From Nitrospirota bacterium (GTDB lineage Bacteria; Nitrospirota; Thermodesulfovibrionia; Thermodesulfovibrionales; JdFR-88), in contig JAJYJK010000001.1 in assembly GCA_021789555.1 (NCBI GenBank), positions 4,871-68,870 on the forward strand: 64,000 nucleotides of DNA. The letters are read 5' to 3'. Under the pieces are notes generated by a model. The model was not told the DNA's origin, made no database searches, and was given only the letters and a program-made list of their open reading frames with translations. Shown here one piece after another: positions 32,690 to 36,041 of the stretch (the stretch's first letter is position 1; each line of letters begins with the position of its first letter). A program made the position numbers and the translations under genes.

Positions 32690-35323
32690 ATGACGGCTAA
32701 AAAGGGGCCTGACAAACCATTCGTTGAATTCGGGAAGACTGAAACCGATCAATCCATTGTCGAGCGTTTCGAGCAGCAGGTGGCCCGATATCCCTCCCGG
32801 CTCGCCGTAAAGACAAAGACTGCGCGGCTCACCTATGCCGAATTGAACCGGACCGTCAACCGTATCGCGCGGGACATAGTGGAACGGTTTGGCCGGGAAA
32901 ACGAACCCGTTGCGGTCTTCCTCGACCAGGGGGCGCAGCTCATATCCGCAATACTAGCCGCATTGAAGGCGGGCAAATCCTATGTCGCACTGGACACCTC
33001 CTTCCCCCATTCAAAAAACGCCTCCGTGGTGGACCACTGCCGGCCGGGGATTGTCCTTACCGACAGGGACCATTACCCTGCCGCCCGCAGGCTTGCCGGC
33101 AATACGCCGCTGCTGATTATCGATGAGGTCAGCCCCCTGTATTCCCCCAGGAACCTCTACCTGCCCATTCCCCCGGAGACGACCGCCTATATTATCTATA
33201 CGTCCGGTTCCACCGGCGAGCCCAAAGGGGTGTATCAGGACCACAGGAATGTGCTCCATAACGTCATGAGATGCACCAACATGCTGCATATGGCCGCGGA
33301 TGACCGCCTGTGCCTCCTCTGGTCCTGCAGCTTCGCGGCATCGGTGCCAAACATATTCGGCGCCCTTCTAAACGGCGCGGCCCTGTTGCCTTTCGACCTG
33401 AGGAAAGAGGGGATTGTCAAACTGGCCGAATGGCTCATAAAAGAAGATATCTCCATTTATCATTCGGTCCCGACCGTTTACCGCCATTTCCTTTCCACGC
33501 TGACCGGAAGGGAAAATTTTTACAGACTTCGCCTGATCAAGCTGTCGGGCGAACCCGTTTTGAGGAGTGATGTGGAGCTCTACCGGAGGCATTTTCACGA
33601 AGACTGCGTCTTTCACGTGTCATATGCGTCCACGGAGACGAATATTGTCCGCCAGTTTTTTTGCGACCATCACACCGCATTCAGCGGCGACATAGTGCCG
33701 GCCGGATATGAAGTGGAAGATATGGAGGTCTTGCTGCTTGATGAGGACGGCAAAGAGGTCCAGGCCAACTGTGAAGGCGAGATAGCTGTCAGAAGCCGTT
33801 ACCTTCCCCCGGCCTATTATCGAAAAGAAGACCCGGCCGAATCGCCGTTCAAGCCCGATGGGACCGGCGGACACCGCCGCATTTACAGGACCGGGGACAT
33901 CGGGCTTATGCTTCCGGACGGATGCCTGGTCCACCTCGGACGAAAAGACATGCAGGTAAAGATAAGGGGGTATCGGGTCGAAGTCAGCGAAGTCGAGGAG
34001 GCCCTGAACGAACTTGCCGCGGTAAAGGAGGCGGCCGTCGCGGGCCGTGATGATCATTATGGCGGCAAGTTTCTGGCGGCGTATGTGGTCCCTCATAAGG
34101 GCAAGGCCATAACGGCCGGCGAGCTTCGCATCGCCCTTAAAGACAGACTCCCCGATTACATGGTGCCTTCACGCTTTGTCCTTCTGGAGGCCATGCCCCT
34201 TACTCTAAGCGGCAAGATTGACAGAATGGCGCTGCCGGACCCGGAGCGCGAGGGGCCGCAGCTCGATAACGCTTATGCCGCTCCGCGCACGCCGACAGAA
34301 ATAATGCTGGCCGGCATCTGGCGAAAAATTTTGAGGATAAAGCGGGTGGGCGCGGCTGATAACTTCTTCGAGCTGGGAGGGCATTCCCTGCTTGTGGCGA
34401 GACTGGCGGCTGAGATCAGGAAAAAGACGGGCAGGACGCTGCCCATTGTTGCGATACTGCAGTCCCCGACAATTAAGCAGTTGGCCAAAATCCTTCAGGC
34501 AGAAGGGTCCCCATCCAAGTTTCCATCGATACTGGTCCGGGCAGGCGGCTCAAGACCACCTTTTTTTTGGGTGGGCATCAATACTTATCGGCCGCCTTAT
34601 CTGGGCCCCGAGCAGCCGGTGTACGGGATCATCCTCCAAGGTGATTACGGGAAGCCCATCGTTTACAGGTCCGTTGAAGAGCTGGCTGCCCACCACCTGG
34701 ATGAAATAAGGACTGTACAGCCAAAAGGTCCATATTCGCTGGGCGGCTATTGCTTCAGCGGCCTGGTGGCTTTTGAGATGGCCCAGCAGCTGTTCAGGCA
34801 GGGGGAAGAAGTGTCGTTATTGTGCCTCGTCGAACCTCTCACGCACTGCCTGCCTTCATGCAATGGGGCATCCAATGTCTCATTAATATCCAGGGTGAAA
34901 TCTCTGGGCGCGAAACTGGCGCTTTTGAGGAGCGCCGAGAAAAGGACATCCGCATTAAGTTTTATTTCCCGCACGATAACGGGAAATATCCATTTCGCTT
35001 TCTGCCAGACTTATATTTCTCTCGGATATCCGGTCCCCCGCCGCTTCAGGGATTTCTATCGCCTGCATACAGCCGGAAGGTATGTCTCCGGCGCTTATCC
35101 CGGCAGGGCGGCCGTGTTTTTGAGAGAAAAAAGGCGCGACGCGGACTGGAGCGGACTTGGCGCCAAGGGAACATATGTCCATGAGGTAATCGGCACAGTG
35201 CATCATACCATGCTGGACGAACCTTATGCGGGAATATGGACCAGACAGCTAAACCGTTATCTGAGCGATATCGAGGCTGATGAAAAGATAGATAGCCATG
35301 ATACAGAAATGGTTTTATCCTAA
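32690..35323 (+). CDS. Single-module NRPS-like enzyme: adenylation - thiolation - thioesterase
   Basis: The ATG at 32690 is preceded by gggagg.
- A-domain cores: YIIYTSGSTGEPKGV, YRTGDIG, GRKDMQVKIRGYRVE, LSGKIDR.
- Carrier motif: FFELGGHSLL (Ser codon 34385-34387).
- TE: PPFFWVG, GGYCFSGLVAFEMA, GTVHHTM.

The ORF-track start at 32495 (TTG) adds a low-complexity stretch and was not used. Confidence 0.85.
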   Translation: MTAKKGPDKPFVEFGKTETDQSIVERFEQQVARYPSRLAVKTKTARLTYAELNRTVNRIARDIVERFGRENEPVAVFLDQGAQLISAILAALKAGKSYVALDTSFPHSKNASVVDHCRPGIVLTDRDHYPAARRLAGNTPLLIIDEVSPLYSPRNLYLPIPPETTAYIIYTSGSTGEPKGVYQDHRNVLHNVMRCTNMLHMAADDRLCLLWSCSFAASVPNIFGALLNGAALLPFDLRKEGIVKLAEWLIKEDISIYHSVPTVYRHFLSTLTGRENFYRLRLIKLSGEPVLRSDVELYRRHFHEDCVFHVSYASTETNIVRQFFCDHHTAFSGDIVPAGYEVEDMEVLLLDEDGKEVQANCEGEIAVRSRYLPPAYYRKEDPAESPFKPDGTGGHRRIYRTGDIGLMLPDGCLVHLGRKDMQVKIRGYRVEVSEVEEALNELAAVKEAAVAGRDDHYGGKFLAAYVVPHKGKAITAGELRIALKDRLPDYMVPSRFVLLEAMPLTLSGKIDRMALPDPEREGPQLDNAYAAPRTPTEIMLAGIWRKILRIKRVGAADNFFELGGHSLLVARLAAEIRKKTGRTLPIVAILQSPTIKQLAKILQAEGSPSKFPSILVRAGGSRPPFFWVGINTYRPPYLGPEQPVYGIILQGDYGKPIVYRSVEELAAHHLDEIRTVQPKGPYSLGGYCFSGLVAFEMAQQLFRQGEEVSLLCLVEPLTHCLPSCNGASNVSLISRVKSLGAKLALLRSAEKRTSALSFISRTITGNIHFAFCQTYISLGYPVPRRFRDFYRLHTAGRYVSGAYPGRAAVFLREKRRDADWSGLGAKGTYVHEVIGTVHHTMLDEPYAGIWTRQLNRYLSDIEADEKIDSHDTEMVLS

Positions 35324-36041
35324 AGGGAGTCCCCGCGCCGCGTGGCCTGTCCCTCCCGATGTCTTGAGGCTGAAAAAAAACGAAGCCCATCTGTGGCTGG
35401 CTTCCTTGGACATGCCGTCAGTTCATGTGGAAATGCTGCGGCAAACCCTTGCGGCGGATGAATCGGGAAGGGCCGCGCGTTTCCGTTTCCCCGGAGACAG
35501 GGACCACTATATCGCGTCGCGCGGATTGCTCAGGACCATCCTGGGCGGGTATCTGAACATGAAACCGGAAAAACTCCGTTTCCGCTACGGGCCGTATGGA
35601 AAGCCGGAGCTTGCGGAAAATGCCCACGGGGAAACGCTCCGTTTCAGTGTCTCACATTCCCGCGGCCTCGCCCTGTACGCCATCGCCCTGGGGCACAGGA
35701 TAGGTGTGGACATCGAATATATTTGTCCCGGCCCCATAGCCGAGGACATCATCATCGCCGGGCAATTCTTTTCGCCCCTGGAAAACATCCTGCTTAAGGC
35801 ATGCCCCGAGCATGCGCGAAAGCGGTTTTTTTTCACGCTCTGGACGCGAAAAGAGGCCTATCTGAAGGCACGGGGGACCGGGCTTGCGGAGGACGGCGCC
35901 CTTCGCAAAGCGGACCGGCAAGCCCTGTGGTCATTTACGGACCTCCGCATCGCTCCGGGATATGCCGCTTCCATTGCCGTCGACGGACGGGACATCCGCT
36001 TCCGGCGCCTGGATTGGGTGAACAGCCCGCCGCGAATATGA
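35298..36041 (+). CDS. Sfp-type 4'-phosphopantetheinyl transferase
   Basis: FRFPGDRDHYIASRGLLR, YGPYGKPEL, FSVSHSRGLA, GVDIE, FFTLWTRKEAYLKARGTG. It overlaps the NRPS-like gene by 26 nt. Confidence 0.8.
   Translation: MIQKWFYPKGSPRAAWPVPPDVLRLKKNEAHLWLASLDMPSVHVEMLRQTLAADESGRAARFRFPGDRDHYIASRGLLRTILGGYLNMKPEKLRFRYGPYGKPELAENAHGETLRFSVSHSRGLALYAIALGHRIGVDIEYICPGPIAEDIIIAGQFFSPLENILLKACPEHARKRFFFTLWTRKEAYLKARGTGLAEDGALRKADRQALWSFTDLRIAPGYAASIAVDGRDIRFRRLDWVNSPPRI

Follow-up and report, generated by a model that had tools for sequence, protein, structure and literature searches.

A stand-alone adenylation-thiolation-thioesterase protein and its phosphopantetheinyl transferase beside a glycan locus of a Nitrospirota bacterium

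What does an NRPS-like protein (NRPS, nonribosomal peptide synthetase) that has no condensation domain do next to a bacterial glycan locus? The question is raised by a pair of plus-strand genes at positions 32690-36041 of a 64,000-nt stretch of DNA from a Nitrospirota bacterium (hereafter "the window", meaning the whole stretch). The pair comprises a gene for an adenylation-thiolation-thioesterase (A-T-TE) protein, followed by an overlapping gene for an Sfp-type 4'-phosphopantetheinyl transferase (PPTase). An earlier note on this DNA had placed the pair at the end of a glycan operon and had proposed that it activates an acid for transfer onto the glycan. Our analysis points, with a probability of roughly one half, to an autonomous, condensation-free NRPS-like module that has its own PPTase and is not dedicated to the glycan.

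Domains and active-site residues of the pair

The A-T-TE product, counted from the ATG, has 877 residues; further in-frame starts lie upstream at TTG 32579 and TTG 32495 in the list of open reading frames (ORFs), and the database copy of the protein has 914 residues. Pfam identifies AMP-binding (residues 27-377), AMP-binding_C (434-509), PP-binding (540-600), and Thioesterase (659-714) in the 877-residue product and gives no match to the Condensation domain (PF00668), which is the architecture of a stand-alone NRPS-like A-T-TE protein, with three domains on one polypeptide and no condensation (C) domain. The core motifs of adenylation are intact (A3, YTSGSTGEPKG; A7, YRTGD; A8, GRKDMQVKIRGYRVE; A10, SGKIDR, with its Lys), as are the phosphopantetheine-attachment residue of the carrier domain, Ser566 in the motif GGHSL, and the TE triad; A5 is atypical, with YASTE in place of YGPTE. 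The PPTase matches Pfam ACPS (PF01648) and AASDHPPT_N (PF22624), both above cut-offs, and its translation contains the motifs GVDIE and WTRKEAYLKA, the latter agreeing with the Sfp-type pattern W/F-x-x-K-E-A-x-x-K; the NCBIfam HetI model gives 186 bits, below its cut-off of 370 bits, and the protein is not assigned to the HetI equivalog. The A-T-TE gene ends with TAA at 35321-35323 and overlaps the PPTase ORF by 26 nt. Because the N-terminal PPTase motif E(A/V)H(L/V)W..SL is kept in six orthologues, the upstream PPTase start, and hence the overlap, is probably real.

The adenylation domain lacks the Asp of GrsA position 235. We took GrsA numbering from a 343-aa GrsA-PheA fragment, checked as 100% identical to residues 184-526 of 1amu_A. 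BLASTP against this fragment matches Asp235 with Ala216, and phmmer with both LgrA adenylation domains aligns SCSF-A-AS with SFSF-D-GS and with TYIF-D-IS, placing Ala216 opposite the Asp of the F-D-x-S motif. The ten-position specificity code read from the BLASTP alignment is A235 A236 P239 H278 K299 S301 S322 I330 V331 K517 (AAPHKSSIVK). Among members of the main Nitrospirota clade, which are 58-87% identical, this code does not vary except for V/I at 331, and it is therefore judged to be under purifying selection. The basal P0019/P0021 pair of homologues has MASHKS[AV]IIK, and many further members of the family, mostly metagenome sequences, have the related code GASHKGGIIK. Of 94 family members, 62 have His at position 278, and 48 have Lys and 23 have Arg at position 299 (together 71 of 94); both positions are invariant in the clade. 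Because the pocket lacks an acidic anchor for an alpha-ammonium group and carries a conserved basic residue, it suggests that the substrate is a non-alpha-amino acid, possibly an anionic or oxo acid.

The TE domain is an ordinary type-I TE, with AB3403, NocB, and Pks13 as its closest structures, and has Cys at the nucleophile position. Specifically, although the Pfam model covers only the core around the nucleophile, phmmer against the PDB places Cys688, in the motif GGYCFSG, opposite the nucleophile Ser of the NocB TE (GGWSFGG) and of the skyllamycin TE (7crn) and opposite the Cys of AB3403 (GGWCFGG, 4zxh); the residue at the elbow is the Cys, not the Ser, of CFSG. Glu715 follows Cys688 by 27 residues, the spacing of the catalytic Asp in EntF, and His838, in a conserved column, completes the triad. 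An AlphaFold2 model of the domain (predicted local distance difference test score, pLDDT, 85.6) has the strand and helix order of an alpha/beta-hydrolase, and Foldseek with this model returns AB3403, NocB, Pks13, the skyllamycin TE, and a fatty acid synthase TE as best matches. Alpha/beta-hydrolases normally need a small residue two positions past the nucleophile. The residue at that position is Ser in the window protein, Trp in clade members P0007, P0010, P0012, P0013, and P0018 (GGYCFWG), Tyr in P0006 and P0014, and Pro in P0019 and P0021.

These results bear out what the earlier note had read from the letters on four points: a stand-alone A-T-TE protein without a condensation domain, Cys at the TE nucleophile, no Asp at the equivalent of position 235, and a translationally overlapping Sfp-type PPTase. 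Its further proposal of a non-alpha-amino acid substrate follows reasonably from the missing Asp235, and a substrate class is what we, too, infer.

Table 1. Coordinates of the gene pair, its domains and key residues, and adjoining features in the window
Feature	Position	Strand	Basis or remark
Promoter-like element, TTGACA-17 nt-TAGGTT	32437..32465	+	Read from sequence; putative function
A-T-TE (NRPS-like) gene	32690..35323	+	ORF list; Pfam; coding 32690-35320
Adenylation domain, aa 27-509	32768..34216	+	Pfam, phmmer, BLASTP, motif search
Ala216 (GCG), column of GrsA Asp235	33335..33337	+	BLASTP against GrsA fragment; phmmer against LgrA
His258, GrsA position 278	33461..33463	+	BLASTP against GrsA fragment
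Lys284, GrsA position 299	33539..33541	+	BLASTP; predicted pocket-lining basic residue, orientation from GrsA numbering
Thiolation (carrier) domain	34307..34489	+	Pfam PP-binding
Ser566	34385-34387	+	Phosphopantetheine attachment
Type-I TE domain, aa about 612-877	34523..35320	+	Pfam, phmmer against PDB, AlphaFold2, Foldseek, column statistics
Cys688 (TGC)	34751-34753	+	Nucleophile position; phmmer against PDB
Glu715	34832-34834	+	
His838	35201-35203	+	Triad His; conserved column
Sfp-type PPTase gene	35298..36041	+	Pfam
hemB (porphobilinogen synthase)	35931..37019	-	Pfam ALAD, 438.6 bits; context, not a proven functional part

Family and gene neighbourhoods

A homology search returned close orthologues (58-87% identity, 870-914 aa) from Nitrospirota/Nitrospiraceae metagenome-assembled genomes and, at about 40-48% identity, many stand-alone proteins of about 900 aa that share the A-T-TE order; the few named sources among these more distant homologues are cyanobacteria and Armatimonadota. 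With an acidobacterial orthologue, L019, from a genome scan, the family ranges over Nitrospirota, Acidobacteriota, Cyanobacteria, and other phyla. Column statistics were taken from a MAFFT alignment of the 120 best matches, 92 of which are stand-alone proteins. Among these 92, the Asp235 column holds Ala (26), Ser (20), Gly (19), Asn (14), or other residues, and never Asp, while C-A-T-TE proteins from the same match list retain Asp235. The nucleophile column holds Cys in 58 and Ser in 25, the acid at +27 is Asp in 61 and Glu in 21, and the column of His838 is His in 88. A missing Asp235 and a Cys nucleophile are family traits, and Cys is the majority state. In an independent genome scan, a Cys nucleophile was present in nine of 56 TE-bearing ORFs, and in five of those nine the preceding adenylation domain has a normal F-D (Asp235) motif. 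The view that Cys-TEs are rare does not survive these counts for this TE subtype, nor does the reading of the two residues as oddities that distinguish this protein, since both are traits of a large stand-alone family.

Other searches added little to this set. A whole-protein scan of metagenome contigs matched five loci, with no close relative among them; a genome-contig scan with the TE alignment returned mostly ordinary multi-domain NRPSs with a normal Asp235 and a single close-relative locus, identical to L001; and tblastn against plasmids gave no match above 32% identity at full length. The one 46% plasmid match is the A-T loading module of a Nostoc NRPS and has a different code. Literature searches (A-T-TE with Cys-TE, the code strings, and hemB with NRPS) gave no description of the family. 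One relative, P0112 (L092, 1608-4382; L093, 2074-4848), is 54% identical to the A-T part, has the code GASHKGGIIK, and has a weak lipid-A-type acyltransferase domain (PF03279) where the TE would be; its gene is translationally coupled to an upstream aldehyde dehydrogenase gene, and in L093 that dehydrogenase is fused to an isochorismatase domain.

Comparison of the window with 10 further loci of the clade (11 loci in all) reveals that the most conserved neighbour of the pair is hemB, which adjoins it in eight of the 11. The PPTase gene follows the A-T-TE gene in 10 of the 11. No specific glycan gene is conserved with the pair across these loci, and the three genes directly upstream of it in the window (a DegT aminotransferase at 31264, a GNAT at 30368, and a GT14 glycosyltransferase at 29456) are not adjacent to the orthologues in relatives. 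No glycan genes lie within 10 kb in L001, L010, and L100, or around the Acidobacteriota orthologue L019. In L100, hemB is co-directional upstream and overlaps the A-T-TE gene by 4 nt; in L001, hemB is co-directional, 10 nt upstream, and the pair is bounded by hemB on one side and by hemA/hemC/hemD-cobA genes on the other. A neighbour-joining tree has two basal lineages (P0019/21 and P0007/10) that carry hemB, A-T-TE, and PPTase genes co-directionally without nearby glycan genes, and a derived sub-clade, including the window, that is defined by the glycan-adjacent, hemB-convergent layout; the hemB adjacency was kept through an inversion between the sub-lineages. As judged from these arrangements, the A-T-TE gene appears to be linked ancestrally to hemB and the PPTase gene, and it borders a variable glycan island in the sub-lineage of the window.

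In the window, hemB is convergent with the PPTase gene, and the 3' ends overlap by 111 nt (35931-36041). The overlap is also 111 nt in L005 and L010, and is 105 nt in L006 and 96 nt in L008. HemB has 362 residues where the genes are convergent and 328-334 residues where hemB is co-directional upstream (L001, L100); its last 35-40 residues are therefore an extension that is antisense to the PPTase C-terminus.

The glycan locus itself consists of plus-strand genes from 928 to 32358. A gap of 331 nt separates the stop of its last gene, at 32358, from the A-T-TE ATG, and contains a promoter-like element (Table 1); a matching element, TTGACATYCGGCCYGRAAAGC, lies upstream of the L099 orthologue, and there the preceding gene has the opposite orientation. 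A generic consensus promoter and terminator scan left the element at 32437-32465 unflagged, with match counts no higher than in shuffled sequence, and Rfam matched neither a riboswitch nor any other kind of RNA element, whether in the 5' region or in the rest of the window. The pair appears to be an independent transcription unit. Downstream, hemB is embedded in the glycan region just like the A-T-TE pair, though it is unrelated to glycans; because this housekeeping gene is equally embedded, embedding is no evidence of function. The placement at the end of a glycan operon is qualified by the gap with its promoter-like element and by the resumption of glycan genes on the minus strand past hemB. 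Membership in the glycan pathway, which had been proposed from position only, is not upheld by three clade loci and L019 that are free of glycan genes within 10 kb or by the basal hemB-ATTE-PPTase order. The module does not appear to be an obligatory part of the glycan pathway; what ties it to the glycan is adjacency, and a glycan role is unproven.

Two contexts give weak hints toward an anionic or oxo-acid substrate. In L019 (Blastocatellia, Acidobacteriota), with eight code positions compared, the code differs only at 239 (Ser for Pro), and the gene lies beside sdhCAB and a 3-hydroxyaspartate ammonia-lyase-like gene, with neither PPTase nor glycan genes nearby. In the nearest outgroups, P0109 and P0112, the translationally coupled upstream aldehyde dehydrogenase has alpha-ketoglutarate-semialdehyde and succinate-semialdehyde dehydrogenases as its best matches, which are below threshold.

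Proposed reaction and competing explanations

Under the preferred reading, that of an autonomous module, the PPTase would convert the carrier domain to its holo form at Ser566. The adenylation domain, with no Asp235 and with His and Lys at positions 278 and 299, would activate a carboxylic acid without an alpha-ammonium group, probably a small primary metabolite of the oxo-, hydroxy-, or dicarboxylic acid type, and the acid would be loaded as a thioester on the phosphopantetheine arm of Ser566. Transthioesterification would pass the acyl group to Cys688 of the Cys-Glu-His triad, giving a thioester acyl-enzyme. Release from the TE would then take the form of acyl transfer, with an amine or a hydroxyl group as acceptor, or else of cyclisation or condensation, in place of simple hydrolysis. 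Non-hydrolytic release is most likely because hydrolysis would be a futile cycle that burns ATP, and strong purifying selection acts on the code. What the data show is the domain content, the residues, the spread of the family, and the gene neighbourhoods; the class of the substrate, the intermediate on the enzyme, and the chemistry of release are what we infer.

Among characterised proteins, AB3403, the C-A-T-TE termination module of Acinetobacter baumannii (4ZXH/4ZXI), is the best match to the TE fold and a strong match in sequence, and its elbow Cys is aligned with Cys688. Its product is undefined, as is the product here, and it acts downstream of a separate A/T pair (PMC10510592). AB3403 has a C domain and an amino-acid-type adenylation domain, with glycine bound in the crystal, whereas the window protein has neither a C domain nor Asp235. 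ObiF1 and SulM, beta-lactone- and beta-lactam-forming TEs to which the earlier note had likened the TE, share the Cys nucleophile that forms a thioester acyl-enzyme, but the analogy goes no further. In particular, a Gln-Cys-Asn motif together with a positively charged pocket defines the SulM-type TEs, which cluster with type-II TEs (PMC11298585), whereas the window TE has Tyr-Cys-Phe and type-I TEs as its closest structures; ObiF and SulM act after a C domain on alpha-amino acids, receiving a beta-hydroxy or beta-amino acyl chain, whereas the window protein lacks both C domain and Asp235; and neither is among the phmmer TE matches at E<=1 or the top 50 Foldseek matches.

Several points weigh against an autonomous module. 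The family has no characterised member; the pocket roles of Lys284 and His258 come from the GrsA alignment and not from a structure; the promoter is a consensus match; and the 11 clade loci, sharing descent, do not count as independent samples. Moreover, glycan genes lie at most 10 kb away in seven of the 11 loci, and in L007, the strongest case for a glycan role, the pair is inside a glycan locus and hemB is absent. Four DegT aminotransferases are encoded in the window (3269, 28237, 31264, and 42405), and none of the ORFs scanned has a hexapeptide-repeat (LbH-type) N-acetyltransferase domain; a real vacancy therefore exists for a donor of N-acyl groups to an amino sugar. The module could fill it as a glycan acyl branch, in which the A-T-TE protein supplies an unusual acyl group that the TE, or a neighbouring FemAB/GNAT-like protein, moves onto an amino sugar or a lipid-linked repeat unit of the neighbouring exopolysaccharide (EPS). 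We regard this as possible, though on the unlikely side. It accords with the PglC/PglF-like fusion encoded at 39704-42400, with the glycan genes found to either side of the pair in the window and in L099, and with the Wzz/Poly_export/Bac_transf genes beside the pair in L009, where hemB is not adjacent. It also accords with the weak LpxL-type acyltransferase domain that P0112 has in place of a TE and with the structural likeness to the TE of Mycobacterium tuberculosis Pks13, a type-I fold neighbour (TM-score about 0.6) that reportedly releases its product by transfer to a trehalose hydroxyl, a precedent for acyl transfer onto a carbohydrate; Pks13 differs in its Ser nucleophile, its polyketide synthase setting, and its very long lipid substrates, and the sequence match is weak (E 1.5e-4). 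A glycan branch is made less probable by the lack of any specific glycan gene that co-varies with the pair, by L001, L010, L100, and L019, which have no glycan genes within 10 kb, by the absence of the association in the basal lineages, by hemB, whose equal embedding occurs without a functional link, and by the gap and promoter-like element upstream of the A-T-TE gene. The protein, moreover, seems to lack membrane or export features, yet polymer modification usually requires access to lipid-linked or periplasmic substrates. DltA/DltC, the Vibrio cholerae O1 RfbKLMNO system, and the XrtA/PEP-CTERM acyl-CoA ligase with its acyl carrier protein offer a like concept, an adenylating enzyme and a carrier in a glycan locus. 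All of these rely on separate proteins and on different transferases (MBOAT/DltD, LuxC/E-like), which did not turn up among the window ORFs scanned. The window protein is not assigned to the DltA type (230 and 222 bits on NCBIfam models whose cut-offs are 476 and 560) or to the exosortase-A ligase TIGR03098 (186.1 bits against 592.35), and PEP-CTERM-type matches in the neighbouring locus are all below threshold.

The remaining alternatives make the product a small molecule, or nothing at all. In a dimerising or cyclising synthetase, two alpha-keto acid units, one on the carrier and one on the TE, would be joined into a small diffusible metabolite, by analogy with the quinone and furanone synthetases RalA, EchA, TdiA, and AtrA. 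The class nearest in architecture, the non-reducing NRPS-like A-T-TE enzymes (fungal TdiA, AtrA, and CorA and bacterial RalA and EchA), has in common with the window protein the three-domain order, the size, and the absence of a C domain and of Asp235. The code AAPHKSSIVK, with its basic residue at 299, is unlike the aromatic alpha-keto-acid code VAEFSGGACK; a basic residue at 299 is not a known feature of TdiA/AtrA/RalA-type enzymes. Such enzymes can be single-enzyme pathways (PMC10316625, PMC9047271), their adenylation domains lack Asp235 as alpha-keto-acid-activating domains do (PMC10316625, PMC9047271), and the solitary gene with its PPTase in several genomes fits that pattern, as do ilvD and ilvBN, makers of branched-chain alpha-keto acids, directly upstream of the pair in L010. 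A Cys thioester acyl-enzyme would also suit enolate chemistry. The first code position, however, is Ala here and Ala, Gly, Ser, or Asn across the family, with Val in none of the members examined, whereas Val is the reported alpha-keto-acid signature (PMC10316625) of the TdiA/AtrA/RalA type. Homology to that type is shown only as generic NRPS domains, and the pair has no accompanying tailoring genes; on balance we consider a synthetase of this kind improbable.

A tetrapyrrole link, in which the enzyme would act on 5-aminolevulinate, porphobilinogen, or a related C4-C5 acid, for instance to form a lactam or to divert a precursor, would explain the persistent pairing with hemB, including the 4-nt overlap in L100, the 10-nt spacing and hemA/hemC/hemD-cobA flank in L001, and the adjacency that survived inversion; 5-aminolevulinate and porphobilinogen are, moreover, both carboxylic acids without an alpha-amino group. 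Yet hemB is not next to the pair in L007 and L009 or next to L019, counted as having the same code, the pocket has no acidic residue for the amine of either compound, conserved synteny with a housekeeping gene often has no functional link, and the literature search for hemB with NRPS gave no precedent, which leaves the link quite improbable. Least credible, and in our view very improbable, is a protein without useful output, either a TE that merely hydrolyses the acyl thioester or a decaying remnant. No partner enzyme is evident, and the Pfam TE match is confined to the nucleophile core, but the adenylation core motifs (except A5), the carrier Ser, and the full triad are conserved, the code has been held by purifying selection, the dedicated PPTase is co-inherited, and an ATP-consuming hydrolytic cycle would be futile. 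A bolder version extends the proposal to an unrecognised, phylum-spanning single-module class in which, with a small residue at 235, His278 and Lys/Arg299 would recognise an anionic or oxo acid of central metabolism and the Cys-TE would release it non-hydrolytically. The substrate would possibly be a C4-C5 dicarboxylate or keto acid or, in view of the link to hemB, a precursor of tetrapyrroles, and release would possibly be onto a macromolecule such as the neighbouring glycan, or by ring formation. We hold this version to be doubtful.

The surrounding region and what the module may mean

The glycan locus encodes a polysaccharide deacetylase, a B12-radical SAM enzyme, three DegT aminotransferases, three FemAB/Acetyltransf_6-like proteins (4679-5650, 16501-17466, and 30368-31267), GT2, GT4, and GT14 transferases, a Wzy_C protein, two AsnB-like amidotransferases (12092-14107 and 18244-19986), and a UDP-GlcNAc 2-epimerase. 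At its start, a B12-binding radical SAM enzyme and a DUF7033 protein (1745-3244 and 5696-7066) lie beside a DegT and a FemAB-like GNAT, a group that suggests an unusual sugar modification, e.g. C-methylation. Three paralogous Core-2/I-branching glycosyltransferase genes (GT14, PF02485) occupy 22344-24346 and 29456-30355. The first AsnB-like amidotransferase scores 598 bits on the XrtA/PEP-CTERM amidotransferase model, below the cut-off of 817 bits; the locus resembles PEP-CTERM-type EPS loci, but with no exosortase seen in the window. A 440-aa protein with BACON_2 and choice-of-anchor-D-like domains is encoded midway through the locus, at 26551-27873, after a short ORF on the minus strand and the widest gaps inside the locus. 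The last DegT gene (31264-32358) overlaps the preceding gene by 4 nt, and its Pfam match begins at profile position 48, without the usual N-terminal 45 or so residues; the protein may be truncated or have an unusual start.

Beyond hemB, the minus strand carries rmlC, a Bac_transf/CoA_binding_3/MshEN-motif/Polysacc_synt_2 fusion, the fourth DegT, and an epimerase, and glmS lies on the plus strand. The fusion is a single 898-aa ORF (39704-42400) that comprises a PglC-like Bac_transf domain (aa 2-191), CoA_binding_3, an MshE-type motif for binding of cyclic di-GMP (c-di-GMP; aa 472-524), and a PglF/CapD-like 4,6-dehydratase (Polysacc_synt_2, aa 560-843). The fourth DegT gene adjoins it, and genes for a GGDEF protein (50525-52783) and a PilZ protein (54663-55457) lie nearby. 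The fusion has the look of a priming step that responds to c-di-GMP and serves a bacillosamine-like sugar. A PrsR/PrsK pair, considered for a downstream sigma-54 regulator and "kinase", was rejected; the regulator is below cut-off, and the large ORF is the sugar-transferase/dehydratase fusion.

The position of the pair at the edge of a variable glycan island, which also holds hemB, is weak evidence of function. Knowledge of the substrate and acceptor would settle, for this genome, whether the exopolysaccharide bears an unusual acyl substituent, would give a function to hundreds of genes whose present annotation is only "AMP-binding protein" or "amino acid adenylation domain-containing protein", and would show whether Cys-thioesterases of the type-I fold are generally tuned for acyl transfer. 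The A-T-TE family is real and conserved, and its enzymology is possibly interesting. If the phylum-spanning class exists, it would offer a new way to turn primary metabolites into a modified polymer or a small signalling molecule. If the pocket and the Cys-TE work as suggested, the family would represent a common, unstudied bacterial route by which a non-amino acid is activated on a carrier without a condensation domain.

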